Positions 1-47,820 of a stretch of DNA of 64,000 bases are shown here, piece after piece. Within the stretch, counting starts at the first letter, position 1. Each line of letters begins with the position of its first letter. The DNA is from an uncultured Oscillospiraceae bacterium (GTDB taxonomy: Bacteria > Bacillota > Clostridia > Oscillospirales > Oscillospiraceae): the NCBI GenBank assembly GCA_910584395.1, contig CAJUAS010000001.1, positions 116,887 through 180,886 on the forward strand. The letters run 5' to 3'. The notes under the pieces were generated by a model. It saw only the letters and a program-made list of their open reading frames with translations. It was not told the origin of the DNA and did not search any database. Position numbers and translations under genes: made by a program.

Positions 1-3000
1 AGCGGACGCGCCCGATCCGGAGTTGATGCCCCAACCCTTATTGGCGGCATCCCAGCCCAAGACCTTTTGCGGGGTGGTATAGGTGCGGAAGGCGTCGCGG
101 CCTTGTGCGTCGGTAATGGTCGTCCAGTAACGAGTATAGTCATAACGGTTGCGGCAGGGGTTCGCGACGTTGTAGTTGTCGCGGTTGACGCTGGTGGCAA
201 TACCCAGCTGACCGTACATATTCGAGCCCCAAGCCCACACCGTGCCGTCCGCCTTCAGGGCGAGGGTGTGGTTGACGCCGGAGACCACCATGGGCGTGGC
301 GATGCCGCTGGAGGGATAGACCTCCACCTGCATGACGCTCTCGGCCACGCACTGATACCGGATGTTGCCGTTCTCATCGGTTTCGATCTCGCCGCGGTAG
401 TTCCGCACGGCCTCATAGGCGCGGAACACCACGGAGGTCTCGCCGTATTCGTTGCGTCCGGCGGCGCGGATGACCCAGTCGCCGCTGGCCGCGTCCTGAT
501 TGACCACCGCAATGGTGGGATCGGTCACGGTGACGGTGACAAAGTTGCTGCTCTTGTCATCCCGGATGGTAGCCGTACCCGTCAGGATGCGCTGGGTTGT
601 GCCGTTGGTGCCGGAGTAGATGATGTAGTTGTCCGCCTTGAGCCGCAGCTGCTGGCTGTCGTTCATGCGGTAACGCCACGCATTGGCGGTAGTGGCGTAG
701 GTGTTGGACTCGGTGACGGTCACCCGCTTGTCGGTGTCGCTGACGGTTTTGGCCACCACACCGTTGATAAGCTGGGAAGCGTCGGTGTTGGCGGCGGCGC
801 TTTCCGCCTCTACGGCGGGGCTGTTGTCCCCGGCGGCGGTGGTGTCGCCGTCCTTCTGGAGGATGGCGTTGGTGACATACACCGAGCCGTCATAACGGTA
901 ACCGCTGATGACGGGAGTGCTGTTCTCCACGCGGCCCAGATTGATCGTACCCAGCTGGAGGTAACGGTTGTTGCCCCAGCCCCAGACATAGCCGTCGTAA
1001 CGGATGGTAGAGGCGTGGTTGTAGCCCAGAGAGACGTACTTCACTTGGGTCAGATTGCCGGTCTGCTCAGTGACCTTATAGCCCTGAGTGTCCACGGTGG
1101 TGTCCTTCACGTCGCCCTGAGCGATGTGCTCCGCGGTCTCACCGTCCTGAGTAAAGAGCGGGTAGGTCACGTTGTGGGCCTTGGAGTTGCCATCGCCCAG
1201 CTGACCCAGATTGCCGTCGCCCCAAGCGTACAGCTCGGCGTTGGTGAGGTAGCTCTTGCCGTCCCACTTGTCGTCTGCACCCAGCACCTTCTTAATGCGG
1301 TTGATGGCGGCGGAGGTGTTTACACCGGCCTCCACGGCCTTGACGCCGTAGAGGTGAGACTGCTTGACGATGGTGATCACGCCGTCGTCGTCCGTGGTGG
1401 TCACGGGGGCGGCATACTGCAGGGTCGGTTCGTAATAGGTTCCGCTGGTGGTGTAATCCCCCGTCAGGGACTTCTTGTCGGTGCTCAGCTTCGCCGGGCC
1501 TTGTGTGAGCTGGTAGTTGCTGTTCGAGCCCCAGCCCCAGACCTTCTGCTGGGCGGCCTCCAGCTCTTCCTCGGTGAGGCTGCTGTCGTTGATGACAATA
1601 CTCTGAATGGCCAGCATATGGCGGTGGCCCACGGCGATAGAGGACACGTTGGTGAGGTAGTTGCCGTCGGTCATGGCGTTGCCCTTGAGCACCTGCGTGG
1701 GTGCGCCGATGGGCTTTTCGTTCGTGCCGATGCCCATCTGGCCAAAGTCGTTGCGACCCCAAGTCCACACCGTGCCGTCGCCCTTCAGAGCGGCGGAGGT
1801 GTCACCGCCGGCGGAGATCATCACCACGTTGCCGATGTGGCCTTCGCCGCGGTCGCCCAGAACCTTGACAGGGGTGCTGTTGGTGTCGACCCACTTGGTG
1901 GGCAGGGTCTCGCGGCCCAACTGACCGTAGTGGTTATAGCCCCAAGCCCAGACCTCGCCGCCGGTGGTCAGGGCGAGGGTGTGGTATTCGCCGGCGGCCA
2001 CGGCCATGATGACCACGTCTTCGCCGTTCTCCTGAATGGTGACCTTCCGGGCCAGCGAGGAATAGCTCACCGCGCCGGTGTCATAGCCCAACTGGCCGAA
2101 GTTGTTGCGGCCCCAAGTCCAGACGTAGCCTTCCTTATCCAGCGCCACCATGTGATCGTAGCCGGCAGCGATCTGGCTGATCTTGTTGTTGTCCCTGTCG
2201 CCCAGATACTCCGTGGGAATGCCGTTGGCGTTGGTCGCAATGGCCACCTTCTGCGGGTTGGCCACGCTGGTGGCGGAGTAGGCGGTGGCGTGGGGATTGC
2301 TGGGATCAAGGCTGCTCTGTGCCACGGAAGTGCCGTCGCTGTTCACAGTCACGGAGGAGGGATTCGTGCCCAGATTGGTCAGAGTGGAGGTGTTCACGTT
2401 GCGCGTGCCGCCCAGATTGCCCTGACCCAGAATGCCGTAGACGTTGTCGCCCCAGACCCAGACGTTGCCCTCGGTGGTGTTCATGGCGGAGTAGTTGCGG
2501 CCCGCCACGGTCTTAGGCACGATCTGGTCGCTGGAGGGCTGGAGGTCGATATCCAGAGAGAATACGTAGTTGCCGGTGACCACCATATCGGGGATGTGCG
2601 TCCCGGTAAGGTCATAGTCACCAAACACCTGCCAAATCTTACCGTCCCCGCTGCCTGCAGCAGTACCGGGGCCGTTGTTATAGGCCGCGCCCAAGGTCAG
2701 GGTGGTACGGCCGGTGAGGTAGTCAAACGGGTCGTCGATAAAGCTCTGGCTGTAGATCTCCGCCTTGTCCGCGCCGGAGTTCAGCACGTCCACCCGGGTA
2801 ATATCCGGGTTGGACATGACAGCGGCCCATTCCTCGCCCACGTTGGTGTGGTCGTAGGGCTTCGTCTCCACGCCGCCGCTCCACTTGTTGGAGTTGATGT
2901 CATGGTCGATGGGATAGAGGGAGAAGCCGGAGTTGTAGTGAAGGTGGGTGTTCTCCTTGTAAATGACCAGATGCTCGTTCGCGCCCAAGGTGATGAAGGG

Positions 3001-6000
3001 CGGCACAACGGGGGTGACGAGCGCGCCGGCATTTGCGCCGTAGTAGGAGGTGTGACCGGTGTAGTCGCTCTTCCACGCGCGGATGGGCTTGGTGGAATCC
3101 ACGGAGCTGCCGGAATAGGGAATGGCCTCCATGTAGTCCACCATCAGCTCCAGAGACTCACGTGCGCCGGCCTGACTGGGCAGAACGAGGTAGGTGCTGA
3201 CAAGGTTAGACAACTGGCCCAAAATGGTGTCGCCGTTGGGCGTGGTGGCGTTGTTGCCCCAGCCCCAGACGTAGCCGAACATTCCGTCCAGCACGCCGTC
3301 GTTCTTGTGATCCGTGCCCGTCTTGTAGTAGAGGGCGGTGGCCATCATGTGGTACGGGCCGGCGACGATGTTGTAGACGCCCTCCAAATAGAGGTAATCG
3401 TCGTTATACTCCTCATAACCGCCCTTGCGGGTGCGGACGGGCAGGTAGCTGGCGTTAGTCGCGCCATTGCCCAACTGGCCGCGGTCGTTGATACCGAAGG
3501 CGTAGGAGTGGGACAGCTCGGTCAGAGCGTCGTTGGCATAGCGCACCGCGCGCATACCGGTATACCCGATACCCGCGCTCAGCTCCACGATGGTCTCGTG
3601 GGCGTCGGTCACAAGCTGCTCCTCAACCTCCCTGTAGACGCTGCGGCCGTTTTCGTCCTTCTTGACGGTGACGCCGTCGGCCTCCGTCTCGATGACCAGA
3701 CCGATGACCTTATTGTTGTTCGCACCCATGGCATCGTCGCTGCCGTGGAACACCAGCGTGGGTACTTTGTGGATGCCCGCTGTATTTAGGCCCATCTCGC
3801 CGTTGGCGGTGTTTGAGCCGACGCCGTAGACGTGGTTGCCCTTGGTGAGCAGCATGGTATGGTGGTCGCCCAGCGCGGCGCCGACCACATGATAGAAGAA
3901 TTCGTTGGTCTGGTAGAAGGTCTCCACCACGGGATCGTTGATCGTACCCACAGGGTAGTTCCGGCTGGAGATGATGCGGGTGGTGGTGCTCTTCGTAAGG
4001 TCGGTGTTCTCGGTGTAGCGGTCTGCACGCATGGCGGTAGGCGCGGAGATATACGCCTTGGTAGCGGTCGCGGTGTCGGTATCGCCCTGCGTGTCCGTGC
4101 CCGTCTGGCCGGAGGTGTTGAGACCCCAAGTATACACCTGACCGTTGGCGCGGATGGCCGCGGCAGTATACATTCCCGCCTCGATATCCACCACGTGGGC
4201 CAAATAGCTGTACGGGGTGTTTTCGTTCTTGTTGAAGGAGCTGTTGTAGTCCATCGGCCCGGCGGCCATACCAGCGGCCACGCGGCGCGGGGTGGACTTA
4301 TAGTCGGTCGTGCCGTCGGCAATGGCGAAGTCGCGGCCCAACTGGCCGTAGCTGTTGTCGCCCCATGCCCAGACGTAGCCTTCGTTGTCCAGCGCCATGG
4401 AGAACTTGTTCCCCGCGGCCACAGCCACGATGAACACGGGCTTCTCCGCATTGGGATAAGCCAGATTGACCTTTACAGGCTTGTTGGAGGTAGTGGTCGT
4501 GCCGTTGCCCAGCTGGCCGCGGTCGTTGAGACCCCAAGCCCACACTGCGCCGTAGCTGTCCACCGCCAAGGTGTGGTCGCCGCCGGCGGCGATGTCCACG
4601 ATGTCGTGGAGATAGGGATAGGCGTTGGCCGTGGTCACGTCCGCGCCGCAAGTCCAGCACTTCAGCGTGCCGCCGGCGGCGTCGATGGCCCGGTCGTCAT
4701 ACACCCGTCCGCAGTTGCCGCAGGTATGTGCGCCGCTCTGGGCGCCGGCCACCACCTGAACGGGGTATGCCCTGCGCTCCAGCGTGCCGCCGTCGCCCAG
4801 TTGGCCGGACGTGCCCTGACCCCAGACCCAGACTGTGCCGTCGGGGCGCAGAACCAGAGAGTGGTAGTTGCCCGCCTCGATCTTGGAGACGGTCACGCTG
4901 CCCTTGGTGGCCTTGTTGGTGTCCTTGACGTAGACAATGAACTGATCCACATAGCGGTAGTTGACCTTGGTGGTGGGATGCGTGTACTCATAGGTCAGCA
5001 CCACGGCGGTAGAGCCGAACTTGTCGGGATGGACGGCGTAGAAGACGATGTCCGTCCCCTGCCATTCATAGCGCAGCAGGCTCTTGTCCACGATATCCAC
5101 ACGCAGGGTGGTCTTGCTGACCACACTGTCGGCCTGACTCTGCGTATTACCGTACAGATACTTCATGGAAGAGCCGGGATAGAACACGTTGAAGCCGTTA
5201 TACTCCTTCAGCCGGAGGTTTCTGGTGTCCAGACGGTACGGATTGTCCTGATCCACCACATGGCGGGTGTTGATGGTGTTGGCCAGAATGGCGGAATTGC
5301 TGTTGAAGTTGGTGCCGCTGTACTCCACCACCATGCTCTCCTCGCGGATGCCGGTGCGGATGGGGGTGTCGCTGTTCTCGGCGCGGCCGTCGCCCAGCGT
5401 GCCCGACGTACCCTTGCCGAAGCTGTAAACGTAGCCGTCCTCGCCCAGAACCGCCGTGTGGTTGCGGCCCGCAGCCGCTTGGAAGGTGGTGTAGGCGAAG
5501 TTGTCGAAGTAAGTCTCATAGACCAGCCGCGTGCCGTCCTCCTGAACGGGGCGGTTATAGTCGGCCAAGATGTAACCCTCCACCTTGGCTACGCCGGGCT
5601 GGGTCTCTCCAATGCCCAACTCGTTGTTGGTGTTGTTGCCCCAGACGTACAGTTCGTTGTTCCACTTGGCCTCGGTGCCGCGGTTGAAGGTGACGGTCTT
5701 GGTCGAGCCGTCCGCCGCCTTGTAGGTGCCGGTGACCGTGGTATACACGGGGCTTTCGTCATAATAAGTGTGGGTCTTGGTGCAGGCGTTCTCCTGAAGG
5801 ATGGTATCGCCGTTTTCATCCGTGCCGGTGGAGATACAGTCATACTCATGGGCAATCTGCGGGGTCTTGAGATCGCCGATGCGGAAGACATGGTCGCCGT
5901 CGGCGTCGGTATAGGTGTAGGTGTTGGACTTCTGCGCCGTGGCGTGGGTGCCGCCGGCAGAGACCGCCACCACATTGGTCAAGCCGGAGACCAGCACGGG

Positions 6001-9000
6001 AATGGAGCTGTGCTGGTTGCCTGCCGTGCCGTTGCCAAGCTGGCCCTGCGCGTCAGAGCCCCAAGCAAACACCGTGCCGTTGCGGGCCAGAGCCACGGTG
6101 AAGTTGCTGCCCGCGGACAGGCTGCTCATGTTGGTGATACCGATGTCACCGCCATAGGTGAACTCGTCTCTCTCCGCCGTGTTCTTCACGGTGTCTGCGG
6201 TGGAGCGGGTCTCTTGGTCGCCGTTGCCCAGCTGGCCATCGGCGTTATAGCCCCAAGCCAGAATGATGCCGTCGGAACGGATCGCCAAGCCGTGGTTCGC
6301 GCCGGCGGCGATATCGGAAATGCTGGTCATGTTGTTGCCGCCCTTGTAGCCAAGGACGCGGGTGGGGGCAATACGGTTCTGCCATGTGTTGTTGCCCAAC
6401 TGGCCCTTGTCGTTGATACCCCAAGCACAGACGCTGCCGCCGTTACCGAGGGCCATAGCGAACTCGTCGCCGGCGGACACGCGCACGATGCCGCTCAGGA
6501 CGCCGCTCTCGCCGTCCAGATTGGCCACCAGCGTGGGGGTGGGCACAGCCAGCGTGCCCTTGTTGATGCCCAACTGGCCGGAGGTGTTGAGACCCCAAGC
6601 ATACACATTGCCCTTATCGGTGACCGCCATGGCGAACGCGCCGCCGGCCGCCACATAGGAGATGGTCTCGCCGGCCGGGATCTGGACACGGACGGGGGCG
6701 TTACGCACCGCGCCGTTGCCGTTGTTGTCCACAACGGTGTTGGTGGTGCGGTCCATGGCCTCGCCGGTACCCAACTGGCCGTAGTTGTTGGCGCCCCAAG
6801 CCCAGACCGTACCATCGGAGCGGAGGGCCACGGTGAAGTCGTTGCCCGCCGCCAGCATAGGCACAGCCTTCGCCCCGTCGTCCAGCACGGCCGCCAGCAG
6901 AGAGCCGGAGTACACGTCGCCGTTAGGCAGGGTGATGTTAAAGGTAATGGTGGCTCGGCCAAAGACCTCGTTGTCGGTGGGCTCCATGTTCCAAACGCCG
7001 TCCTTGGTGCGCCAGACCTTCACCACGTCGGGGTTGGAGGAGGTCATCATCACGTGGTTGCCGTAGACGTTGGAAATGTCGATATCGCTGTAGAGGTTGA
7101 AGCCCTTGTAGTTGATCTGGAGCATTGCCCCGTCCTTCCAAGGCATCTCATAGCGGTAGCCATGCTTCAAGACCACCTCAACAGGCGGCTTCATATCGGG
7201 CGTATCGGCGTTGTACTCGGCGATCTTCTTGCCCGTCTCATCATAGAGAGCGGAGCGCTGGATCTCCAAGCTCTTATAGGGCAGCGGGCCGGTACGGGTG
7301 GGATAGTAGGCGGGGTCGTCCTCATAGTCGCCCACCTGACTGTATTTGCCTTCGCCCCAGATATACTCGTAGCCTTCATGGTTGATGGCAGCGGAGTGGT
7401 TATAGCCGGCGGCGAAGCCCTGAGCCCGGGCAAAGTAACCGGCGGTGACGGTGGTATCCAGCATGATCCCCGGGTTGGTGCTGTCGGGCACCTTGTAAAG
7501 GATATTCTTCATATCCATATCAAAGATAGCTACGTTGCTGTTTTCGCCGTCAAACACCCGCTGGAGGGCGCGGTAAGTCCCGCCGAAGCCGGTGCGCTTG
7601 TTGTCCTCGGTGCGGCCCAACTGACCGATGGTGTTGTCGCCCCAAGAGTAGATGTCCCCTTCTTCGGTGTCCAGCAGGGAGAACGTGCCGCCCGCCTGAA
7701 CATGGGAGATGAACAGCGTGCCGCGGCCCTTGCCGCTGACACTCCAATAGGGCGTTCCGTCGTCCTTCGTGCCGGACATCATCCAGCCGTCCACCCACTG
7801 GCCGGCGGCATCGGTGTAGCCCACGCCCACCGGAGCGGTGCTGGTGGAGTTCAGGGTCATGGCCGTACCGTCGGGCAGGTCGCGGATGTACGCCAGCGCC
7901 TGCAGCTTGGAGACCATGATCTTCTCCTCATCAGAGAATTCGTTGCGGCGGTTGGTGGGATAGCTTCCGAAGTAGTCCACCATCAGCGCGTAGAGGTTCT
8001 CGATGGCATACGCGCCGCCGTTGATGTCCGTCTCGGCAATGGGGGCGGCCAGACCGGCGGCCACCGTCGCGGTGTCGCGGCCGAGCTGCTCGCTGGACTC
8101 GCTGCCAACGGTCAGGTTGGTGCCCCAAGTATAGACCGTGTTGCTCTTACGCAGGCCGGTGGCAACGTCGTAATCGCCGCGCAGGGCCACGGCGTGGTTC
8201 TGGCCCATATCCAGCTCCACGATCTGATTAAGCTGGGTGCCCACCTCGACCACATAGAGATCCACGTCGTTCTCATTCTTGTGGGGATCAATGGGCTTGC
8301 CGTCCGTACCCGTGACAGAATTGTCCAGCGTACCCTTGCTGGTAAAGCCGGCGAGATCGGTCTGCACGCCGTGGGCGCCCTGAATTCCACGGCCGGTGGT
8401 GTTGCCCAGAAGCTGCTTGCTGTTCGAGCCCCAAGCAAAGACCTTGCCGTCGCTGCGGAGGATGGCGGAAGCCCCCTCCACGGCGGACGCGCCGGAAGCG
8501 GAGACGGAAATGGCGTTATTGAGCCAGTAGCCCTCGCCCACGCTGCCCGCCTGACGGACGAACTGGGGCGCAAGAGACCGGGCCACGCTGTTGTTGGGAT
8601 CGCCGGCCTGTCCGCGGTAGGTATTGCCCCAAGCAAGGACGGTGCCATCCTTCAGCAGGGCGATGGAGTGGTCATAGCCTGCCGCCACATCCACCACACC
8701 GGTGAGATAATGTTCTGCGCCGAGGGTCACGCCCGCAGGCAGGTCGGCGGCGGAGGCGATGTGGGTGCGGGTCTTGTCCTCGTTGTCCACATAGTAGCCC
8801 TGCGCGCCGTCGGTGTAGTAACGGCGGTCGTCGCTGCCCATTGCATACCAATAGGGGCTGTCCCCTGCCAGCACGCGGGTGGGATACTTATAGTAGTCGG
8901 TGTTGCCCGAACCGACCTGACCATAGGAGTTATAACCCCAAGCGTACACGTTGCCGTAGGCGTCCACGGCCAAGGTGTGGCCGCCGGCGCCGGTGGTCTC

Positions 9001-12000
9001 CTGATAGCTCTGGTTGACCGACATCTTCATGATGGCGGGGTTATGATAGATGCCCGCGCCCAAGCGGCCGCGGCCTTCCACGCCAGCGACCTGCGTGGGG
9101 GTAATAATGCGTACAGAGTCGCGCTCCTTGCTGTCGTCCACCTCGGCGGGCGGCTCTGCTCCCACCAGCGTCACATTTGCTCCGGTGAAGATCCCGGTCT
9201 GGCGCAGCTGCTCCAGACGGGAGGAATCGAGGGCGTCGTTCCCCTCCTCGTCCGTTGTCCGCTCCAGCTGGATGTTCACCCGGCGCAGCGCGCTGCTCGC
9301 ATAAGGCGCATTGGTATAGGCGTCAGCCGTGAAGGAGGACGCCAGCATAGCCCCGGCAGCCGGGATGTCGGTGTTGAAATTGATGGTCTGGATCTTGCTG
9401 CCTTGGAACGCCCCCACGCGAATGGCCTTGTACCCCTCGGAGATGGTGAGGATGGTGGCGTTGCCGTCGGCAAAGCGGTTGCCCGTGCTGGACGCGTCAT
9501 AATCCACCAAGAACACCGGCACACTGGCCACGCCGCTCAGCAGAGTGAGAGGATCGCCGGTAAAGACAGAGGTGTAATCGCTCTCTGTCAGGGTGGTGGG
9601 CAGGATCAGCTCGGAAGCGGCCTTGCCTTGGGCCGTGAGGCCCGTAATGACCGCCACGCCGGGATAACGGTTGTCGTAGGCGTTGGGGTCGGAGGGATCG
9701 TTGTTGACCCGCAGGGCGTCGATCATCGCCTGATAGAACGCAATGGTGTTCTTGTGCGGCTCCAGATCGGCGCGGGCCTTCAAATGAGCGCTCTGGGCAG
9801 CATCCAAGTTGGCGCGCAGAGTCTGGAAGCGGCCCGCGTCCAGCGCACGCAGAGTGTTGGCGGTGTCCACTGCGCCGCTGAAGTCGCTGGAGCTGTCCAG
9901 AAGGGTGTCCAGCGTCTTCATTGCCGCGTCGGCGCTTCGCAACGTGTCCAGCACCGTATTGCCCACGTTCTTGGTGTTCATATCGTAGCGCACGGTGTAC
10001 TCAAACCGGGTGCGCAGTCTCATTCCGGCGGGGAACACGGGGTTGTCGCCTGTGGTGTCCACGCCGGTGATGGCAGTGTAGTCGGTGACGGAGGGATCCA
10101 CCGTCAGCTCCCCGTTCACCCCGGTGAGCGCGTCGATGCGCCCCTGAATGGCGGCGAGACTGCTGCCCAGAGTGGCCAAGTTACTCATAAGGTCGCCGAA
10201 CTCTTCCTTGGTGGGCATATCGCCCATGCTCTGAAGCTGGGTGCGGGTGAGCCGGTAAGCCGCCACCCGGGCGTCCAACTCCGCCTTCAGGCCGGTCTTA
10301 CTGTTGGAGAGCTTTTCAATCAGCTCGTCTATGGTGGGAATGCCCGCATAGGTGTTGAAGGTCGCCACGCTCTGGTCGATGATGGCCTTGGCGGCGTCAG
10401 TTTCGGTCTCCAAAGCGTCAATGGCATTGATCAGTCCGTTGCGGCTGTTCACCCAATCCGCCTGATCCAGCGCGTTCTGGGCGTTCTTCAGTGCGCTGGC
10501 GGCGGCGTTGGCAATGGACTCCAAGCTGGTGGGGTCGGTGGCATCGCCGATGGCAGCCTTGGCGTCCAGAATAGCCTGATCCATCTTGCCGGTCGCGCCG
10601 GGAATGTAGGTGTCCGCAGGATAGAACTTCCAAGTAAAGTAGCTGGCGGGGGACTTCTTCGTCTCTTCCGCCACGTCCGCGCTCTGGGTAGACAGGCCCA
10701 GATTGCCGTTGCGGTTGTCGCCCCAAGCCCAAACCGTACCGTTGCGCTTGATGGCATAAGAGGTGTTGTAGCCGGTATACACCCGCTCCACGGAGACGAT
10801 GGCGTCGCCGTCCTCGTTGGTGCCCTCGCCCACGACCGTGACCTTGAAGGAGCCCCAATAGCCGTTGACCTTGTCCACCACCACGATGGTGGCCGTGCCG
10901 TAACGGGCGTAGTGCTCCCCGGCGATCTGGCCGGTGGGGGTGATGACCACGCCCACGTTGCGCGTTTCCTTCTTGCCGTCCACGGTGACCTCTTCGGTCT
11001 TGTTGCTCACCTGAACGATGGACTCGTCGGAAGAGAAGTAGGTAAAGCGGTTGGCATAGTCGGCCACGCTGGCCACTTCCTTCTCGGCCACGGCGGTTTC
11101 GGCGTTGCGGATGGTGCGCTCCCAGTGGAGGTTATAGCCCTTGTAGGTCTCCTCCACGATGGACTTGGCGTCCACTGTCAGCACCTGACCGGCGGTCATG
11201 TGGACATCCACAGGCAGCTCGCCCATGTAGATGCCGTCGTCGCCGCGCGTCTCGCCCACCATCAGGGTGTCGGAGGTCTCAAAGAACTGCTTGCGGCCGC
11301 GGTTGTCGTTGGCGGGATTCTTGACGGCGTTGGGGTCGGTGTTGGTGGTGTCCGTCAGCGAGCCGTTGGTGATCTGGAGGAGGTTGCCCGCCTGCGCGCC
11401 CACCAGCGCGGGCTCGCCGATGGAGAGCCCGTCGGAGTGCATCGTGCCGCCGGTGGCAAGGTTGCCCGTCTGGCCGTTGGTGTTCGAGCCAACGCCGTAC
11501 ACATAGCCGTCCTCGGTGAGGAAGAAGGCGGTGTTGTTGCCGGCGGTCACGGCGGTCACATGGTCAAGGTAGTTCACATTCTCCACCGTGGCGTACGGGC
11601 CTTCGCCGCTGAGCACGCGGTTGATGTCGGGATCGGTGTTGCCGCTGCCGGCGGTGGGAACGACGTTGCGGCCCTCGGAGTGCCAGCGGCTCACGATCTT
11701 GCCGCCGCTGGTGTAGTTCCCGGCGGTGTTCGCGCCGTCGGCGCGGCCGCCGTAGAACTTGCCGCCCCAAGCGTACACGCCGGAGGTGTCCGCCGTGTCG
11801 TCCACCACCAGAGCGTACCCGGTGTTGTTACCGGCGGCGATGGCGACCACGCTGCCCGCAGTGCCCAGCTCCACCTCTACGGGGGTGGAGTGGTTTTCGT
11901 AGTAATAGTGGGGGAAGTATTCGTTGTTATGATCCTTATCGGAGCAGTTCGACCAAGTCTGACCGTAGCTGTAATTCGTGCCGCAGGGATAATCCTGATA

Positions 12001-36000: not shown

Positions 36001-39000
36001 GTTATAGGTGTGGAGCAGGGCGTCATTCTCGTCGTAGTGCTCATAGTGGTCCAAAATCAAGCTCTTGGACTCGCCGTCGCCCGCCTGAACGGCCCGGAAG
36101 CTGTCGTCCCGCGTCCCGTTGCCCAACTGGCCGCGGTCGTTGCGGCCCCAGTTCCATACATAGCCGTCATAGCGGACAGCCGCCATGTGCTTGCCGCCCA
36201 CGGCGATGGCAATGGCGCGGGTGAAGAACTTGTAATCCTGATTGGAATTGGCGCTCTCGCCCTGCGCGACCTGAACGGCGTGGCCCACAAAAGCGGTGCG
36301 CGCGCCCTCCAGATCGTCCTCGTCCCGTTCGTCCAGACCCAGCTGGCCTTCCATATTAGAGCCCCAAGCGTACACAACGCCGCCCGCTTCGCCGAGCATT
36401 GTGCCGTCGCGGACAATGGCTTCGCTGGACTGCCCGCCGGCAGCCACAGTCAGCACGTTTTGAAGATCGGCGCCGGAGGCGGTCTTGACCCGGACAGCCC
36501 CAGCCTCACGCCGCTTGACGATGGATTCGCCCACCAGATCATAGGCGTCCACGCCCTCAATGCCGGGCTGGCCTCCCACGCCGGGCACTTCGGTCACCAG
36601 ATCCTTGATGTCATAGGTCACATGGTCCACCGCGGCGTTGCCGATCTGGCCATAGGTATTTTCGCCGAAGGCCGCGACCGTCCCGTCGGACAACAGAGCC
36701 AGAGAGTGGTTGCCGCCGGCGGAAATGCTCATCACATTGACCAGATAGCCGCGCATCTCGCCGGCCGCCTGATTTGCGGGATCACCGTTCACAGCACCCA
36801 CCTTCACCCGCACCGGCACACGGTAGGTAAAGGTCGCACCCAGAGTGGAATTGTCGCTGCGGACCAAGGTGCTGTCAACGCCCACACCCAACTGGCCGTA
36901 GGAGTTGTCACCCCAGCCAAAGAGAGAACCGTCGCTGCGAAGGGCCAGCACATGGCCGTCGCCGGTGGAAATGGACATGATCTCACTCAGGTAGTAGCCC
37001 TTGCTGGCGGCTTCGCCCTCCATGACCTGAACAGGCTTCCAAGTGAACTCGTTGAAGGTCGGCTTGCTCTCCATCACCTTGTTGCCGCTCTCGTCGTCAA
37101 GGGATGCACCGTATTCGCCGCCGGTGGTCACCAGCGTGCCGTTCTTCTCGCGCTCCAAATACTGCTCCAGAGCGGTCTCATAGTCCTCATAGCTCCACTT
37201 CACACCGCTGTAAGTCGGCCGCGCCAGCACCCAGTCCGTACGGAAGGTCGGCTCGCCGTCCTTTTTGTCGCCCAGAGGCACAAAGTGGTCGTACTTTTCC
37301 CCGTAAGAGGGGTTGTCAATGGCCATCCGCTCATAGGCGGACTGGAGATAGCTGACCGCCGCCTCATAGAGCTGGAGGGCAAGGACAAACTCGTCCATGG
37401 TGGCTACCTCGTTGCCGCGGTAGTCGCCCAAGGGGCGGATCAGCTTACTGTTATCGCTGTCATCCTCGTAGTAGTCCTTCATGTTCGCCGGATCGCGCAG
37501 CGCTTTTTCCTGCAGTTCCACGAACTCCGTCATATCATAAAGGTACTTGGCATACAGGTAGTAGCTGTCCAGATAATAGGGGTCAGCCTCCGGACGCTCG
37601 TTGTGTCCGGTATACATCACTTCGCGGTTGAAGCGGCTGCCCATCCCGCTCAAGCCCAGCTTGGCGCACAGCTCGTCATAGATGCTGGGGTAGGCAGTGT
37701 AATCGCTGGTGCGGTAGGTCAGCTCGGTCAGGTGCTGCCCACGGACGCTGTCGTAGCCGAGCACGTCCCCTACATAGCCCACACCAAGCTGGCCCTTATC
37801 GTTGCGACCCCAGCTCCAGACCGTGTTGCGCTCGGTACGCACGACGGTAAAGCCGTCCCCGGCAGCGATCTCAACGATCTTGCCGAGCACGCTGCTGATG
37901 TCCGCTTCCACAGCGGAGAAGCTGCTATAGCCGATCACTTCGCCTTCATCGCCGGTGAGAGCAAAATCGGCGGGATCAAGGGCAAACTGCCCGAAGCTAT
38001 TGTCGCCCCAAACATACACCGTGCCCTCGCGGGTCAATGCGGCGGCGTGCCGCCGCCCGGCGGCCACCGCCACCACATGGCGGATCATGGGCGCAAGACC
38101 GCTTTCCGCGTCGGTGACCGTGCGCACCGCCATCGGCGCGTCAGAGTATGTCTCCACTTGGTTGTTGATGCCAAGCTGGCCATAGGTATTGTCGCCCCAA
38201 GTCCACACTGTGCCGTCCGCCTTCAGCGCGACGGAGAAGTTCTCGCCCAGAGCGATCATAGGCGTGGACTTATAGGCGTACTCCTGCTCCATGTGCTCGC
38301 CCGAAGCGTCCTCCACATTGAGGACGTGCACGACGATCATCGCAGAGCGGTGGGTCAGGGTGTTATAGATCCGCACGGTGGCCACGCCGCTCTGCTTCCC
38401 GGCGATAAGGGTATAACCCCTATGATCCACCACGGCGGGGTTGGAGGAGGTGATGACCAGCGGAGCGTTCGCCCACATATCCTCATACTGGGGCACTTCG
38501 TTGCCCTCTTCGTCCTCGGTCACACCCACCAGCTCATAGCGTTCGAGGTTGATCTCGGTGATGTCGTTGCCCAGCTCGTCCTTCCCTACCACGATCCGCT
38601 CGGCAGGGATTTCGATATAGGGCTGAACCGTGCCGTCCTCCGCAGTGGTGACGTTGCGGTAATATTTCTCTCTCCCCTGCGTGTAGACCAGACGGTAATC
38701 GGGAATATAACGCTCGCTCGTCCCCACGATATCCACGGTATCGTCGGTAACCAGCTCCAGATAGTTGCCCAATGTCAAGTCAGACAGCTTTACATCCCTG
38801 CCCGACCAGTTGGGAAGATCGCGCCCGGGTACAATGACCTCGGCGTCCAACACGCCGCCGGAGGGAAGAACCACGCTGTCGCCGCCCGTCTCCTCCATCA
38901 GCTCCGCGCCCGCCTCAAAGGTGGGACGCTGCATGGTGAACACCACGTTGTAGCCGGTCAGAAGGGCATCGTCCACCGCCGTCAGCTCATCCAGCGAACT

Positions 39001-42000
39001 GAGGGTGGCGTCCGAATAGCTGCCGCCGCCGGTGATCACGCTCTCCCCCTTGCCCACCACGCGGATGGTGAGGCTGGTGGCAGTGGCCAGATCCCAAGGT
39101 TTGTTGTCTGCATCGTCAATATTTTCGCTGATGGTGGCGTCCGTGCTAAAGGTCACGGGTTTCCCAAGCACAATGCCGCTCTTGTCGATCAGCATATTGT
39201 TGTCAGCATCCTCAAAGTTCTGCTGAATTCTCACAGAGAACTCGTCGGCGTGGCTGCCGATGATCTGCACGGAAATGGTGTTGTTCACGGGCAGCACCAG
39301 TTTGCCTTCCGCCTTGCCGGCAGCGCCCTTCTTCGCCGCCGCGTCAATGGTTTGGAGCACTGTGACGTTAAAGGCGGGCGACTGCTCGTCGGGCATGGCC
39401 ACGATCAGGCCGTTGCTGGTCTTGCCGTTATAAATGTCCGCGTCGGTATCATTGATCGAGCCGTTGAAGCCGCTGATGATCTGAACGTGGCCTTGGGTAA
39501 GGGTGTTGTTCATGGTCGTGCCGTCGTCGTTGGCCACCATCAGGGTGTACTGGATCTCCCGCGTCGGCACGGACAGCGGCGTCACAGCGGGATCCACCGC
39601 CCCTTGAAGGATGTCCTTCACATAGCCGCGGTAGGTCAGGTTAAACTGCGTGCCCATCACGGGGAGCTTCACCCCGTTGGGATAGCGCAGATAGACCATA
39701 TAGTCGTCTCTGGGGATGCCGCCCCGCGCCGTTCCGCCCAGCTCGCTGGTGTCGAACAGACCGTCGCCGCGGTGGGTGAGCTTATAGCTGGCCCAGACAC
39801 GCTGCGGTGCGCCCACCGCAGTTGTGCGGCCGCGCTGGCTTTCCAGATACAACTCATACCCCTGCGCGGTGGCGTCCGCCCAGTTCACATTGTTCTTGGT
39901 GAGGCGAACCGCCATGGGGATCATGTAGTTTTCGTCCCCGGCGACATTGCCGTCCATGGTCACCACCAAGTCGGTCTCACCCACCGCCTTCATGATCTGC
40001 AGGGGGGTCGTCCCGTCGGTGGTGGCGTACTGGTACTCGATCTTCTCCAGACCGATATTCGCCGTGCCGCCGCTGGAATTGCGCCAAGTGCTGCGGACGC
40101 GAGACCCCACCACGCCGCTGGTGAGGGCGGTGGTGGCGGTAGTGAAGATCAAGGGTGCATCCGCCATGACCTTATCGCCGTTAATGAGCTTCCAAGTGAC
40201 GTTGCCGGCGCTGCCGCCAGTATAAATGCTGTAGCGATCCTCGCCGTCCACCTGCGTGCGCTGTGCATAGTAGACGGAAAGCTCCGCCATGGCAACGCCG
40301 TTTACCGGCACGATGGCTACGTTCAAAGTGAAGTAGTCCAAGGTGTCGGTTTTGTTGCCATTCTTAATGGTGATGGTTTTCGGCCCTTCAAAGGCCAGCT
40401 CCGGGTGGGTCAGCAGGCCGCTGTCGGCATCAAACGCGCCGTCCACATACTCCCACACCTTATATGTGCCCTCGGGCACGTCCTTGGCGGTGTAGGTGTT
40501 CTTGCCCGCCTGCTTTTCCAGTACCACAGTCTTATAGCTGCTCTTGAGGAACAGCTTGCGGTCGCTGTCTGTCCAGCTGGCGTGATCCAGATCCACCCGC
40601 AGGGTCACGTCGAAGAGGCGCGGATGCTCCACGGTACACTGCACATCCACCTGATCGCCCAGAGACTCCACCGTGAAGTAGCCGTCCACCGTGGCGGCCT
40701 CGGCCTGTGTCAGTTCCTCCTTAAAGGAAGTACCGTCGGTATAGCCGCCGGTGTGCTCCACGCCGTTGTCATCCGTCCACTTGCCGTCGTAGACGACCCA
40801 GCGGTTCTTGCGCTCAGTGGTATAGACCGTGGCGGCGGGATTCACCGCCCACTCGTAGTTATAGTCGGAGACATAGCCGCCGCGGCCGGTCACATGGAGC
40901 ACCAGCTTGCCGCCGCCCCAGACGCTGTCACCGGAATGGATGACAATGGTCTCTCCGCCCACGGTGTATTCGCCCGTCAGAGTAGAGGTGGCGCTGCTGT
41001 CGCCGCCCGTTTCCGCCAGACCGAAGGTAATGGTGAAGAAATCGATCACAGCAGGGGCCTTTGTAAAGTCAATCCCCTTGCCAACCTTCACTTCCGCGCC
41101 CGTATCCTTCCAGACCGCGCCGTCCTTGTGCTCTTTCGACCAGATGTTGTAGCTGCCGCCGATCACATCCGCCGCATCGTAGTGCGTATAATAAGGAATC
41201 GCCACGCCGTCGGAATTTACATAGCCCGCGCCCTCCACCGTCCGGGTCAGCGGATACTCCCGCTTCATGGGGGTGTTCTGCACCAGCTTATAGTCGCAGT
41301 CATTATACGCCGCGTCGGGTACGCGATTCCAAAGGACGCCGTTCTGATGGGTCTCCATCCGCACAGAGAATGTGCGGTTGCCGCCGTAGTTCACTACGCC
41401 GGAAACAACAGGGATATAAGCGTCGTCAAAGCCGGACTGGCCCGCGCTGCTGCGGTCTACCAGAGACATTTCGCCCAACTGGCCGGACTCGTTCTTGCCC
41501 CACGCGAACACCTCGCCCCGATCCGTCAGGGCGACGGTGTGCTTGCCGCCGGCTGCCAGCGAGGTCACTACGCCGTCCACGTTTCCGGGCTTGGTCACCA
41601 CTTGATAGTTCTCGGCGACGGTCTGGGATTGATAATAGCCGTTGGAGTCTGTCGCGGGGATCGCGATCTGACCGTCGGTGTTTGTGCCGAAGGTATAAAT
41701 GGTACTCTCGATGATCGGGCCGAGAATGGTGGGATCGGGCAGTACCGCGCGTTTCCCCCGGAGGATGGCGGTATGGTACTGGCCTGCGGCCACACCCACC
41801 GCGTCAGTAATGTCGACGCCGTTGTCATCCACCAAGGCGGTGGCATACTGGACAAAGCCGAGGCCGTTCTGATCCGCAGAGGCGGCACGGCCGAGCTGGC
41901 CGTAGCGGTAGTCGCCGGCCGCCATAATGCGTCCGCCCGTGCCGCGGGTGGGGTCGCCCTCGGTAAGCACGGCGGTGTGATAAAAGCCCGCGCCGATCTG

Positions 42001-45000
42001 GATCACGCTGTCCACAAGGATGCCCGCGCCCTCGCCGGTGTTGCTGTACTGGCGCATATAGTCCACCGCCACCCCGTACCGGGTGCCGTCTTCATCAATT
42101 TCGTGAGGGCCAATACCCAACTGGCCATATGTATTGTCGCCCCATGCAGCCACATAGGTGCTGTCGCTGCCGCTGGTGCCGCCCACGTTGGCGTAGGGGA
42201 ACGGGCCGATGGCCAGAGAGTGCCAGCCGCCGCCCGCCACTTCGGTGGCTGCGGTCAGATACTTCATTTCCGGGGTCTGGCCGTTAACGTCGCGCACCAC
42301 CCGGTCGGGGTATGTGCGAATATCGCCGATGGCGCTGACCTTATACCCCGTGCCGAGCTGTGCCTTGGAGTTATCGCCCCAAGTATAAACCCAGCCGGTG
42401 TCGCCTACGGCGGCCATGGAGTGATACCCGCCGGCGGCAATGCTGGTCGCGCCCATCAGGTAGTTGCTGCCGCTCTCGTCGCCGCTTGCACCCGCAGTCA
42501 CCTGAATGGGATAGCAGCTCCAAGTGTCCTTCAGCTTCTCCACCGCCGCCTGATCCACTTCCACCTGAATGGTGTCGCCATGGACCTCATAGGTAATATA
42601 CACATCCTCGTTCTGGCCCAACTGGCCTCTGGAGTTGTCGCCCCAAGCGTACACCGAGCCGTCCGCCGTCCGGGCCAACGCATGGTTGAAGCCGGCGGAG
42701 ATCTCCTTTATTAAGGTAAGGCGACTCATCACAGGCTTGCTTTCCCGCGTGCCCAGTCCGGTCACGCGCATGGGATAGGGCGCATAGGGCAGCTCCTCGT
42801 AGCTCTTGCCCGTACCCAACTGGCCGTAGCTGTTGTCGCCCCATGCCCAGACCGTACCGTCGGACTTCAGCGCGACGGTAAAGTTCTCGCCGGTGCGGAC
42901 CATAGGCGTTGCAAAGTTGTTGGCGTCCTCGATGATGACCTTCAGCTTGCCTGCATAGACGCCGTTAATGTCCACATCCGCCGCGTCCTCCACAATGCCC
43001 ACGATGGTGAACACATCCTTCAGATCGGTGGGCTCCAGCACGGCGTTGTTCCGGCTCAGCTTCTCCCAAGGCTCTTGGTGATCCTTGGTGTCGGTGATGT
43101 CCAGATTGGGGATCTCCTCGGTGTGGGTATAGCCATAGATCATCTCGCTGTCCTTGGCGCTGGGCACAGCCCGGTCGCGCTCGGAGATGTTAAAGCCCAC
43201 ACTATAATAACGCTTCATTCCACTCTTGAACACCACCGCATACTGCTGGTCGGTGAGGGTGATGGAATATTGGAGGCTGACAGCCTTCAAGGCGTCGAAC
43301 TGCTCGTCGTTCAGCTCCATCAGGTTCTCGTCGTCCTCGGTGGGATCAATCTGGGTGAGCTTGGACACGGGGATGGACGCCACGTTGGGCGCGATGTCCG
43401 CATCGCCGTCCTCACCCTGAACAGGCACGGTTTCCGGCTGGACCGCGTAACGGGCGGTAAGCTGGGTGGTGGTCTCGCCGGTGTCCTCATCGGTCATGGT
43501 TGTAAAGACCCACACCTTGTCATAGATCAGGTTCTGGCTCACGCCGTAGCCGACCCGAATGGGAACTGCCACAGAGTCGTTGTCCGCCATGGGGTCACCC
43601 TTGCTGTTGACCATGGTCCGCAAGGTGGGGGCTGCGCCAAGCTGATAGACAAAGTTGTAGCCCGTGCCAAAGACCTCGCCCGCTTCATCCCACAAAATGG
43701 AGAAGTTATCGCCGGCGGACACGCCCACCGAGCCGGTCACATACTTCAGCTCCCCGCTGTTAATGTTGCCGTTCTCGTCGCGGGTGAAGTTCTCGGACAG
43801 CATCTTGGTGGGGGTACGCTTCTGGCTGCTGGTGTTGACGCCCGAACCGTCCGAGCTGACCTGACCGGAGTCACTGCTCTGGCCCAACTGTCCACGGGTG
43901 TCGTAACCCCAGCCGTAAGTATAGTAGATGTCGTCCCGGCTGTCGTTGCTGCTCTTGGGCCGCTCGCGAACCACGGACAAGGTGTGGTCAATACCCGCGG
44001 ACACGCTTACCGTGCGGATGTCGAACTCGTTGGCGTCGCGGTAGACCACTTCCGTGGGCAGGATGGCGTAGGTGTTTTCCTCGTCCTTAGGGTCGGGCTG
44101 AGGAGAGTTGTCGCCCACCTGACCGCGGTCATTCTGCCCCCAGCCAAACACCGTGGTGGTGTCGGTGCGAACGCCGTCCACCATATTAAGGTTGGCGGTG
44201 ATGGCCATCATGTGGCCGTAGCCGTGCTCATCGTTGCTGGCCGCGCCGCCCGCGCTCACCGCGACTGCGCCGCCAAAACCAGAAGTCTTGGTGGTCCATT
44301 CGCTGCCGTTGCGGGTCATGTAGGCCTGCACCTCGCCGGCAGTGGACTGCTGGAACCACTCGTTGTCACTGCCGTCGCTGGGTTTATGGTTGAGACCCAA
44401 CTGGCCGCGGCGGTTGTCGCCCCAAGTGTAGACCTTCCCCGCCGCGCTCAACGCCACCGAGATAGAGCCGCCCGCCGCGATGGACACGATCCCGGTCAAA
44501 GGCTTGTCGTTTCCGTCTTTGACCACCACCGGGTAACCACTATAGTAGAACTTTCCGGCCTCGCTGTACGTCAAGTCCTCAACCTTTACACCCAACTGCC
44601 CGTAGCTGCCGCCGCCCCAAGCGTACACCGTGCCGTCCGCCGCCAGCGCCAGCGCATGGTTGCCGCCAGCCTCGATAGCCACGATGTTGCAGAGGTAACC
44701 GTTCGCGTCCGTGTTAGGATCTGCCGGCTGGCCTTCCGCCACCGCCGGGCCGCGCACCAGCATCGGGTCCTGCACAGTCTCGCGGGCATTGATATCGCCC
44801 GTGCCGGTCTGGCCACGGGTGTTGGAGCCCCAAGCATACACATTGCCGTCGGCTGTCAGGGCCAGAGAGAAGTTCAATCCGGTGGACACCATCACCACGC
44901 CGGTCAACGGGGTGTAGATGCCGTTGGCGCTGCGCAGATAAATGGGCGCAGGGGAACGGAGAACGCCGCCGTTGGCGCTGCCCAGCGCGTTGGTGTTGCT

Positions 45001-47499: not shown

Positions 47500-47631
47500 G
47501 ACCCTCACCCCTTTCTTTGCGATATATATAAAGGTATAAGTCCTGTGGTCAGACGCAGTTTTGGTCGTGGTTTTCCCGTCTGTACCCCTCAAATGGGCGC
47601 AATGACACCACGATGGCATTTTTACGGGAAT

Positions 47632-47660
47632 ATTATGGCACAACCTGCCGAAGAATGCAA
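47632..47660 (-). promoter_or_regulatory. candidate sigma-A promoter of the giant gene (TTGCAT-17 nt-CATAAT)
   Basis: The minus strand reads ggcTTGCATtcttcggcaggttgtgcCATAATattccc, with the -35 at 47660-47655 and the -10 at 47637-47632. This would give a ~125-nt leader before ATG 47499. It lies downstream of the strong terminator at 47785-47820. Confidence 0.4.
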
Positions 47661-47784
47661 GCCTTTTTTTGGGTTTTCCTCAAATTGTCCATGTGGAACT
47701 GTGGAAGCTCCAAATCAATTGCCCCGATTTCCCGTGTTGCTCCCTATATGACGAGATATATTTTAGAAAAGTTCCCGCATTTTT

Positions 47785-47820
47785 CAAAAAAAAGGCGTCC
47801 TTTCCCGCAGGAAAGGGCGC
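47785..47820 (-). terminator. rho-independent terminator of the upstream lipoprotein operon
   Basis: The minus-strand RNA reads GCGCCCUUUCC-UGCG-GGAAAGGACGC followed by C-U8. The stem is 11 bp (one G-U) at 47795-47805/47810-47820. It lies 63 nt after the DUF4358 stop and separates that operon from the giant gene. Confidence 0.85.

Follow-up and report, generated by a model that had tools for sequence, protein, structure and literature searches.

A giant minus-strand gene of an uncultured gut Oscillospiraceae bacterium encodes alternating Ig-like modules and RCC1-type propellers, most likely as an extracellular binding fibre

The window considered here is the whole stretch of DNA that was analysed, 64,000 nucleotides from the genome of an uncultured Oscillospiraceae bacterium (contig CAJUAS010000001.1). 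Its positions 1-47499, read on the minus strand, contain the 5' end, 47.5 kb long, of one chromosomal gene of this gut bacterium, whose product is an array of RCC1-type propellers alternating with immunoglobulin (Ig)-like modules. The protein has at least 15,833 amino acids (aa), a lower bound, as the 3' part of the gene lies beyond the left edge of the window. The gene fits the class of Oscillospiraceae RCC1-type giant genes, which is already known in brief (West-Roberts et al., 2023; 10.1101/2023.11.21.568195), and the most likely role of its product is that of an extracellular multivalent binding fibre. An earlier note on this DNA had described a tandem array of Ig-like domains and RCC1 propellers in the same place; the array is indeed there, though on the minus strand.

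Reverse-complement frame 2 is stop-free across window positions 1-47682. Translation most plausibly begins at ATG 47499, with GGGGTGAGG upstream of it and MDANISKLKLLGTRIIAGVLTASMLLSTAATAMAAG downstream. The RCC1 blade motif has 28 strict matches in this frame and 0 in any other. A mechanical list of open reading frames (ORFs) shows nothing long on the minus strand in positions 1-47,000, and the giant ORF is missing from it because the frame leaves the window edge. The list gives plus-strand ORFs of 5,533, 4,301 and 2,834 aa, all in frame 1 (e.g., 3832-20433, 20512-33417 and 34210-42714). The plus-strand frame is the codon-aligned antisense of the giant gene, and its stops mirror the sense codons TTA, CTA and TCA. 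These codons occur 8 times in the 15,833 codons of the giant gene (0.5 per 1000), as against 20 times in the 4,583 codons of nine neighbouring genes (4.4 per 1000) with a similar GC content at third codon positions, a difference with a Poisson probability of ~1e-20. The antisense frame is open because these three codons are nearly absent, and their scarcity may reflect selection that disfavours rare codons when the mRNA is very long. The locus is thus an annotation trap, in which mechanical ORF finding yields only wrong-strand shadow ORFs. As true genes the plus-strand ORFs were rejected, their translations having no RCC1 motif or family signal. Stop-codon reassignment was also rejected, the minus frame being simply stop-free and running off the window.

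The gene can be followed past the window in an 88,374-bp gut-metagenome contig (L006), which shares 89% identity with the final 297 residues encoded in the window. Its frame runs on past the window edge for 3,378 aa or more, through about five more units of Ig-like module and propeller, with no stop. The orthologous protein of L006 has at least 19,211 aa, and the geometry of the contig bounds the full size to ~19,200-21,400 aa. When the final 700 aa of L006 were used to search for the C-terminal part, the matches were generic RCC1 proteins only, with no fragment that overlaps.

The repeat architecture is dominated by RCC1 blades. When the protein was scanned against Pfam in four pieces, all four matched WD40_RLD (PF25390; 709-949 bits, cutoff 150), RCC1 (PF00415; 414-542 bits) and RCC1_2 (PF13540; 516-602 bits), and nothing else scored above threshold. 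A blade hidden Markov model (HMM), built from the protein itself and iterated, finds 119 blades at E<0.01, which group into 18 complete propellers and the first blade of a 19th. Seven blades are detected in about two-thirds of the propellers. Five are counted in unit 9, six each in units 10 and 11 and apparently eight in unit 13; the seventh blade of units 8, 12 and 16 matches the HMM only weakly. The starts of first blades are spaced by 610-964 aa (1.83-2.89 kb), or by 1.83-2.47 kb in units that carry no large insert; two longer units measure 1,548 and 1,308 aa. These values bear out the count of about 18 units and the spacing of 1.9-2.4 kb given in the earlier note, with 18 complete units and one partial unit found in a single ORF by the blade and Ig HMMs.

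The Ig-like module is ~105 aa long and precedes 18 of the 19 propellers. An HMM refined on an alignment of 17 whole linkers finds 18 such modules at E<=1e-8 and none elsewhere in the protein; among them are the three examples that had been proposed at 15331-15530, 45151-45387 and 38300-38480. Each module ends at the first blade or at most 47 aa upstream of it (in unit 2 the match overlaps the blade by 3 aa). The linker of unit 9 (aa 7655-7941) has no clear module, the Ig HMM giving E=0.027 only. The conserved junction motif between module and propeller that the earlier note described is borne out. Its N-terminal half, P-[MKQA]-[VIL]-x-x-[GA], is present at 13 of the 19 first blades and at none of the 100 other blades, so the junction is unit-periodic. 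The C-terminal half, ALKxDGTVWxWG, is the generic signature of an RCC1 blade. In its literal form the whole pattern matches four times, and when at least 12 of its 16 defined positions are asked for it matches 22 times, 16 of these at first blades. Repeats at the DNA level are limited to short blade-signature stretches of 60-80% identity.

The fold of the propeller was modelled for unit 4 (AlphaFold2, aa 3855-4482) from an alignment of the paralogous units and database RCC1 proteins. The model has seven four-stranded blades, with a predicted TM-score (pTM) of 0.77 and a predicted local distance difference test score (pLDDT) of 85-97 in the blade cores. In Foldseek it matches UVR8 with E ~1e-27 and a TM-score of 0.84-0.86 normalised to the target, and it also superposes on the whole seven-bladed propellers of RCC1, HERC1/2 and RPGR. 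The RCC1-like domains (RLDs) of UVR8, RCC1 and HERC are matched over their whole length, with TM-scores of 0.73-0.86 normalised to the target. These results support the closing of the blades into a discrete seven-bladed propeller, as the beads-on-a-string picture of the earlier note had it, for the one unit modelled; the other propellers are assigned by the blade HMM.

The fold of the spacer was modelled separately on the linker of unit 13 (AlphaFold2, aa 10563-10745, 17-sequence alignment). The model is all-beta (pLDDT 80.7, pTM 0.73), and its best PDB match in Foldseek is 2L04, the C-terminal Ig-like domain of λ gpV (TM-score 0.65 to the target, probability 1.0, E 3.5e-3). This domain of the λ tail-tube protein is one that we take to belong to the Big_2 family. 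The next matches are Ig-like domains of the S-layer proteins EA1 and SbsB, of Rib and of titin. A profile of 14 modules has as its top PDB matches LigA, intimin, LigB and chains named 'Bacterial Ig-like domain, group 2', at weak E-values of 0.0025-0.3. Against Pfam Big_2 (PF02368) only 2 of the 14 modules match, the best with E 0.004, and all stay below the gathering threshold of 22.8 bits, the first module reaching 14.4 bits; scans of the whole protein give no Big_2 match. The description of the spacer as Big_2-like therefore stands as far as the modelled Ig-like fold and the profile resemblance to LigA, intimin and LigB go, but not as Pfam membership. The models and profiles support a divergent Ig-like module of the Big_2 type rather than a certified member of that family.

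The array is old, to judge from its paralogous propellers. Identity among them spans 20-40% (median 26%; high-scoring segment pairs of at least 150 aa), which makes them as distant from each other as from unrelated bacterial RCC1 proteins. A homology search with one unit returned only generic RCC1 proteins of up to 1,100 aa at 25-30% identity, with no giant relatives in that database. Orthologues were reached through the N-terminal region, which was aligned with its one relative and led to five loci in GTDB species genomes (L001-L005), all of them metagenome-assembled genomes (MAGs) of uncultured Oscillospiraceae or Clostridia. In each locus the frame is open to the end and the parts stand in a common order: the N-terminal region, an Ig-like module with seven blades, a linker of ~233 aa, seven blades, a block of ~970 aa and then unit 3, with its Ig-like module, three blades, insert of ~256 aa and four blades. 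For segments at the same position, identity amounts to 77-99% in L001 and L002; in L003-L005 it is 34-75%, wherever these loci have the colinear counterpart. Compared unit by unit, the five MAGs are colinear with the window protein, at 46-96% identity for matching positions. Taken together, the syntenic orthologues (41-89% identity) all come from Oscillospiraceae or Clostridia MAGs, including those of the MGBC mouse-gut catalogue, and from gut-metagenome contigs. Upstream synteny is conserved as well, with genes for SecA, a YfiH-like protein, SBP5, PurL, ThrE, HAD and GDSL.

Nei-Gojobori ratios of nonsynonymous to synonymous substitution (dN/dS) against L001 and L002 are 0.02-0.24 in all segments, the orphan blocks and the insert among them. 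It is strongly supported by these comparisons that the array predates these species and that each position is individually under purifying selection, which agrees with the earlier description of an old, maintained array. Such positional constraint would be compatible with unit-specific function, and purifying selection on unit-specific residues would fit the suggestion of the earlier note that each propeller may have a ligand of its own. Among the most conserved segments is the linker of aa 1300-1532 (42904-43602), 96-98% identical in L001 and L002 with dN/dS of 0.03-0.04. The linker of aa 3808-3969 (35593-36078; IG4) has dN/dS of 0.02-0.04, as compared with 0.04-0.13 in the propellers. Both linkers are more constrained than the flanking propellers, so the spacers may be more than separators. 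One locus departs from the general pattern. L003 (CAMNQX010000001.1) is the closest in its flanking housekeeping genes (PurL 90%, against 85% in L002 and 77% in L004 and L005), whereas its giant gene is among the most diverged, at 47% in U01, 56% in the linker of aa 1300-1532 and 50% in U02; the same segments are 91-96% identical in L002 and up to 75% in L004 and L005. This incongruence suggests allele replacement, recombination or a lineage-specific acceleration.

The colinear orthologues also bear on whether the locus is one real gene. Repeat-rich regions misassemble easily, and mechanical ORF finding offers plus-strand ORFs only, so the array might be an assembly artefact, a recent repeat amplification or a set of plus-strand genes. 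Such an explanation is extremely improbable. The minus frame holds all RCC1 matches without a stop, whereas the plus-strand translations lack any family signal, their openness being explained by the codon usage described above. The repeats shared at the DNA level are short, and units that are ~26% identical are too diverged to leave an assembler anything to collapse or expand. The independent assemblies L001, L002 and L006 are colinear. An artefact, a recent amplification and separate plus-strand genes are ruled out by the frame, the colinear orthologues, the ~26% identity of the units, the dN/dS values and the codon usage.

Roughly one third of the protein consists of sequence outside the RCC1 and Ig domains and has no family match. 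Searches of Pfam, NCBIfam and PDB profiles gave nothing significant for the N-terminal region (aa 1-725, 45325-47499), the linker of aa 1300-1532 or the 969-aa middle region (searched as aa 2029-2997, 38509-41415), and no match for the inserts of aa 3253-3508, 4697-5095 and 12282-12836, which are among the insertions of 250-555 aa carried by several propellers. By BLAST, the non-Ig linkers and inserts have no significant similarity to one another. A search of 5.8 billion clusters gave one relative for the N-terminal region, and one of 1.84 billion representative proteins gave 11 for the middle region, these last being probably fragments of orthologues. Both are constrained: dN/dS is 0.11-0.14 in the middle region and 0.11-0.24 in the two orphan regions together. 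Zinc-ribbon-like knuckles of the form CxxC...CxxC are seen in loops of three propellers, namely HTCGNCGR...KCWTCGA in propeller 17 (~4648-4722; conserved in L006), YYYCPNCD...YTCACGE in propeller 14 (~12901-13035) and YYCPVCG...PCAG in propeller 8 (~25192-25308). Further Cys pairs lie in the 399-aa insert of unit 5. Knuckles of this kind are unexpected in a giant secreted protein that is otherwise poor in Cys (0.23%).

As to function, an extracellular multivalent binding fibre is favoured for several reasons. The N-terminus is read as a putative Sec signal peptide from its n-region, h-region and AxA layout, and it is the sole clear transmembrane-like hydrophobic window in the 15,833 aa, so that no internal transmembrane segment is seen in this part, which stops short of the C-terminal 3,400-5,600 aa. 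This N-terminus is nearly identical in P0001 and in L001-L003. Bacterial RCC1 relatives typically co-occur with SLH, dockerin, type IX secretion system-sorting, Big_2, FN3 and PKD domains, all extracellular contexts. Bee-gut bifidobacteria carry LPxTG-anchored proteins of spacer and RCC1 propeller (PMC4449606), and giant proteins of the present kind have been predicted to be extracellular (10.1101/2023.11.21.568195). In such a fibre, the protein would be exported through the Sec pathway, the propellers would be ligand-binding beads, each with its own conserved surface, and the Ig-like modules would be rigid spacers that set the distance and presentation of the propellers. Likely targets would be glycans or proteins of host or mucus, polymers from the diet, or other microbes.

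Several points weigh against a binding fibre. The ligand, binding, expression and localisation of the protein are all predictions, and the signal peptide was called by eye and from hydropathy. The C-terminus, with any anchor that it may have, lies outside both the window and L006. On the structural side, the Ig part of the model of the whole of unit 4 is unreliable (pLDDT <50), and the match of the separately modelled spacer is modest (E ~3.5e-3). The orphan third, with its lack of a fold assignment, could carry a different and dominant activity.

Some of the same evidence would fit a scaffold outside the cell, a fibre of the S-layer, sheath or matrix type with a mechanical or architectural role, in which the propellers would serve self-association or matrix assembly and not the recognition of external ligands. 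The spacer model also resembles the S-layer domains of EA1 and SbsB, many smaller RCC1 relatives bear SLH domains, and some spacers are under stronger constraint than propellers (IG4 and the linker of aa 1300-1532). Nevertheless a scaffold is rather unlikely. A lattice that assembles itself would not usually be made of units that all differ (~26% identity), Pfam scans find no SLH or other wall-binding domain in the available 15,833 aa, and the gene is confined to a narrow set of genomes.

Some RCC1-like propellers bind the receptor on behalf of a toxin complex, and others, such as BLIP-II, are tight inhibitors of enzymes. An antagonistic or defensive protein, either a fibre for the delivery of toxins or effectors or a decoy or inhibitor array, is nonetheless quite improbable here. 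Such a protein would have its active function in the orphan regions, which are large, conserved and without explanation, but profile scans detect no toxin, Rhs, peptidase or nuclease domain in the protein. The divergence of the giant gene is incongruent with that of the flanking housekeeping genes, as an arms race would predict, but selection between close relatives is strongly purifying and not diversifying. An RCC1-like propeller is part of the Yersinia entomophaga toxin complex (10.1101/2023.11.21.568195), but at the present locus no immunity-like or secretion-system genes are adjacent, the neighbours being housekeeping genes.

The binding-fibre reading can be extended, tentatively and with less confidence than the fibre itself, to at least 23 propellers that would each be a distinct and conserved recognition module. 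The orphan regions and the zinc-ribbon-like loops would then add activities of their own, and the mismatch in divergence would be the mark of allele replacement under selection by host, phage or competitors. If so, one polypeptide of ~20,000 aa would form a multi-specific fibre ~200 nm long, as estimated from typical domain sizes, and would hold the largest known set of non-identical beta-propellers in one protein.

Among known systems, the closest is the class named by West-Roberts et al. (2023), the only paper found in the literature searched that joins RCC1 with Oscillospiraceae. Genes of this class come from human, mouse and rabbit gut metagenomes and from a Pseudoflavonifractor genome, and their proteins have no internal transmembrane anchor and are predicted to be extracellular (10.1101/2023.11.21.568195). 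The likeness lies in a giant, RCC1-dominated protein, in the Oscillospiraceae and in the mammalian gut. For a class of RCC1-dominated proteins of more than ~10,000 aa, the present gene offers 119 blades and a product of no less than 15,833 aa, and of no less than 19,211 aa in the orthologue, and the loci closest to it are Oscillospiraceae MAGs from the mouse-gut catalogue and gut metagenomes, as in the class. However, those proteins are described as a single repeating domain over their full length, whereas the unit here has two domains, about a third of the residues are orphan or insert sequence outside RCC1, and the units are positionally orthologous across species. Added to the paragraph of the preprint are the two-domain unit with its Ig-like spacers and strict junction, the positional orthology, the purifying selection, the large orphan blocks, the insertions in propellers and the oddity in codon usage.

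A similar layout is known from surface proteins of honeybee-gut Bifidobacterium, in which a spacer followed by an RCC1 propeller of seven repeats stands in tandem, in divergent copies (Ellegaard et al., 2015; PMC4449606). These too are surface proteins of gut Gram-positive bacteria with a spacer-then-propeller unit, but they have 2-4 propellers each, compared with at least 19 in the window protein, and their spacer is the Listeria-Bacteroides repeat (Flg_new, PF09479) and not an Ig-like module. Indeed, PF09479 has no match in Pfam scans of the protein or of its linker modules. The Bifidobacterium proteins are LPxTG-anchored, whereas the C-terminus of the window protein lies outside the window, and they form multi-gene tandem families that are not positional orthologues (PMC4449606), unlike the one syntenic gene described here with its positional orthology. 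Eukaryotic RLD proteins (RCC1, UVR8, HERC1/2, RPGR) share the seven-bladed fold and the blade signature, but they are 15-22% identical to the window propellers, are intracellular and contain between one and three RLDs each, and nothing in the window protein points to a GEF or photoreceptor function. Giant Ig-repeat adhesins (Salmonella SiiE, the Mobiluncus mulieris adhesin, LigA/LigB, intimin) are likewise very long secreted fibres with Ig-like spacers. In them most of the fibre is made of Ig domains, which are near-identical repeats, whereas in the window protein the Ig-like modules alternate 1:1 with large propellers and the copies are highly diverged.

Other relatives come from human-gut contigs of 39% GC (L008-L012, L017, L032), which form a distant branch with the same architecture. 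Their frames are open across whole 21-kb loci and encode at least 7,107 aa, with few inserts and with ~83 blades and 12 Ig-like modules of the same kind, which recur very regularly every ~550 aa. Their units are 27-28% identical to the window protein and have no unit-for-unit colinearity with it. In four further loci (L013-L015, L019; GC 38-39%), the matching frame is open for just 63-422 aa around an Ig-like module, a few blades or both; short paralogues, copies with a frameshift or the use of another reading frame could account for these.

The features of the gene are collected in Table 1. The promoter-like site, a match to consensus only, lies ~260 nt 5' of the start codon and so implies a long 5' leader. 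An Rfam scan of this leader (47500-47787) gave no credible family match. A terminator-like hairpin (47816-47799, minus strand) lies just upstream of the promoter-like site.

Table 1. Features of the giant gene in window positions, all on the minus strand; unit domains are from the blade and Ig HMMs.
Feature	Positions	Strand	Description
Promoter-like site	47760..47787	-	TTGAAA-16-TAAAAT; consensus scan, 10/12 matches
Shine-Dalgarno-like site	47500..47519	-	GGGGTGAGG; directly 5' of ATG 47499, read from sequence
Giant ORF, 5' part	1..47499	-	no stop; RCC1 Pfam matches over full length; continues in L006
Signal-peptide-like N-terminus	47395..47499	-	aa 1-35, MDANISKLKLLGTRIIAGVLTASMLLSTAATAMA followed by AG; hydropathy, cleavage site between the two placed by eye
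N-terminal orphan region	45451..47394	-	aa 36-683; conserved blocks between acidic, Pro-rich low-complexity linkers
Unit 1	43603..45450	-	Ig aa 684-788; 7-blade propeller aa 810-1299
Unit 2	41416..43602	-	233-aa linker, divergent Ig aa 1411-1536; 7-blade propeller aa 1533-2028
Orphan middle region	38608..41415	-	aa 2029-2964; not RCC1 and not Ig by sequence
Unit 3	36079..38607	-	Ig aa 2965-3065; propeller split into 3+4 blades by 256-aa insert
Unit 3 insert	36976..37743	-	aa 3253-3508; conserved in orthologues
Unit 4	34054..36078	-	Ig aa 3843-3952; clean 7-blade propeller aa 3970-4482; modelled unit
Unit 5	31291..34053	-	Ig aa 4499-4601; propeller split into 2+5 blades by insert
Unit 5 insert	32215..33411	-	aa 4697-5095; 399 aa, Cys-containing
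Unit 6	28894..31290	-	Ig aa 5445-5553; 7-blade propeller aa 5572-6202
Unit 7	26707..28893	-	Ig aa 6244-6345; 7-blade propeller aa 6355-6931
Unit 8	24538..26706	-	Ig aa 6997-7095; propeller aa 7118-7654; CxxC knuckle aa 7398-7436
Unit 9	22147..24537	-	287-aa linker aa 7655-7941; propeller aa 7942-8451, 5 blades detected
Unit 10	20152..22146	-	Ig aa 8522-8660; propeller aa 8675-9116
Unit 11	17983..20151	-	Ig aa 9210-9358; propeller aa 9376-9839
Unit 12	15814..17982	-	Ig aa 9868-9982; propeller aa 9986-10562
Unit 13	13819..15813	-	Ig aa 10620-10723 (linker modelled); propeller aa 10732-11227
Unit 14	11434..13818	-	Ig aa 11314-11421; propeller aa 11436-12022; zinc-ribbon-like CPNC...CAC aa 11489-11533
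Unit 15	7276..11433	-	Ig aa 12096-12228; propeller aa 12240-13408, insert after blade 1
Unit 15 orphan insert	8992..10656	-	aa 12282-12836; 555 aa
Unit 16	5338..7275	-	Ig aa 13439-13544; 7-blade propeller aa 13548-14054
Unit 17	3193..5337	-	Ig aa 14078-14197; propeller aa 14206-14769; CGNC...CWTC knuckle aa 14260-14284
Unit 18	892..3192	-	Ig aa 14833-14951; 7-blade propeller aa 14998-15536
Unit 19, partial	1..891	-	Ig aa 15590-15732; first blade, cut by window edge; continues in L006

At ~19,000-21,000 aa, the protein would rank among the largest bacterial proteins described. Across a clade of common but uncultured gut Oscillospiraceae its gene is conserved and keeps a single place in the chromosome. 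Since the cell pays for a gene of ~60 kb that is under strong purifying selection, what it does must be important to a gut-dwelling bacterium. The anatomy described here turns a one-paragraph mention in a preprint into testable objects, namely units that can be expressed singly and screened for their ligands.

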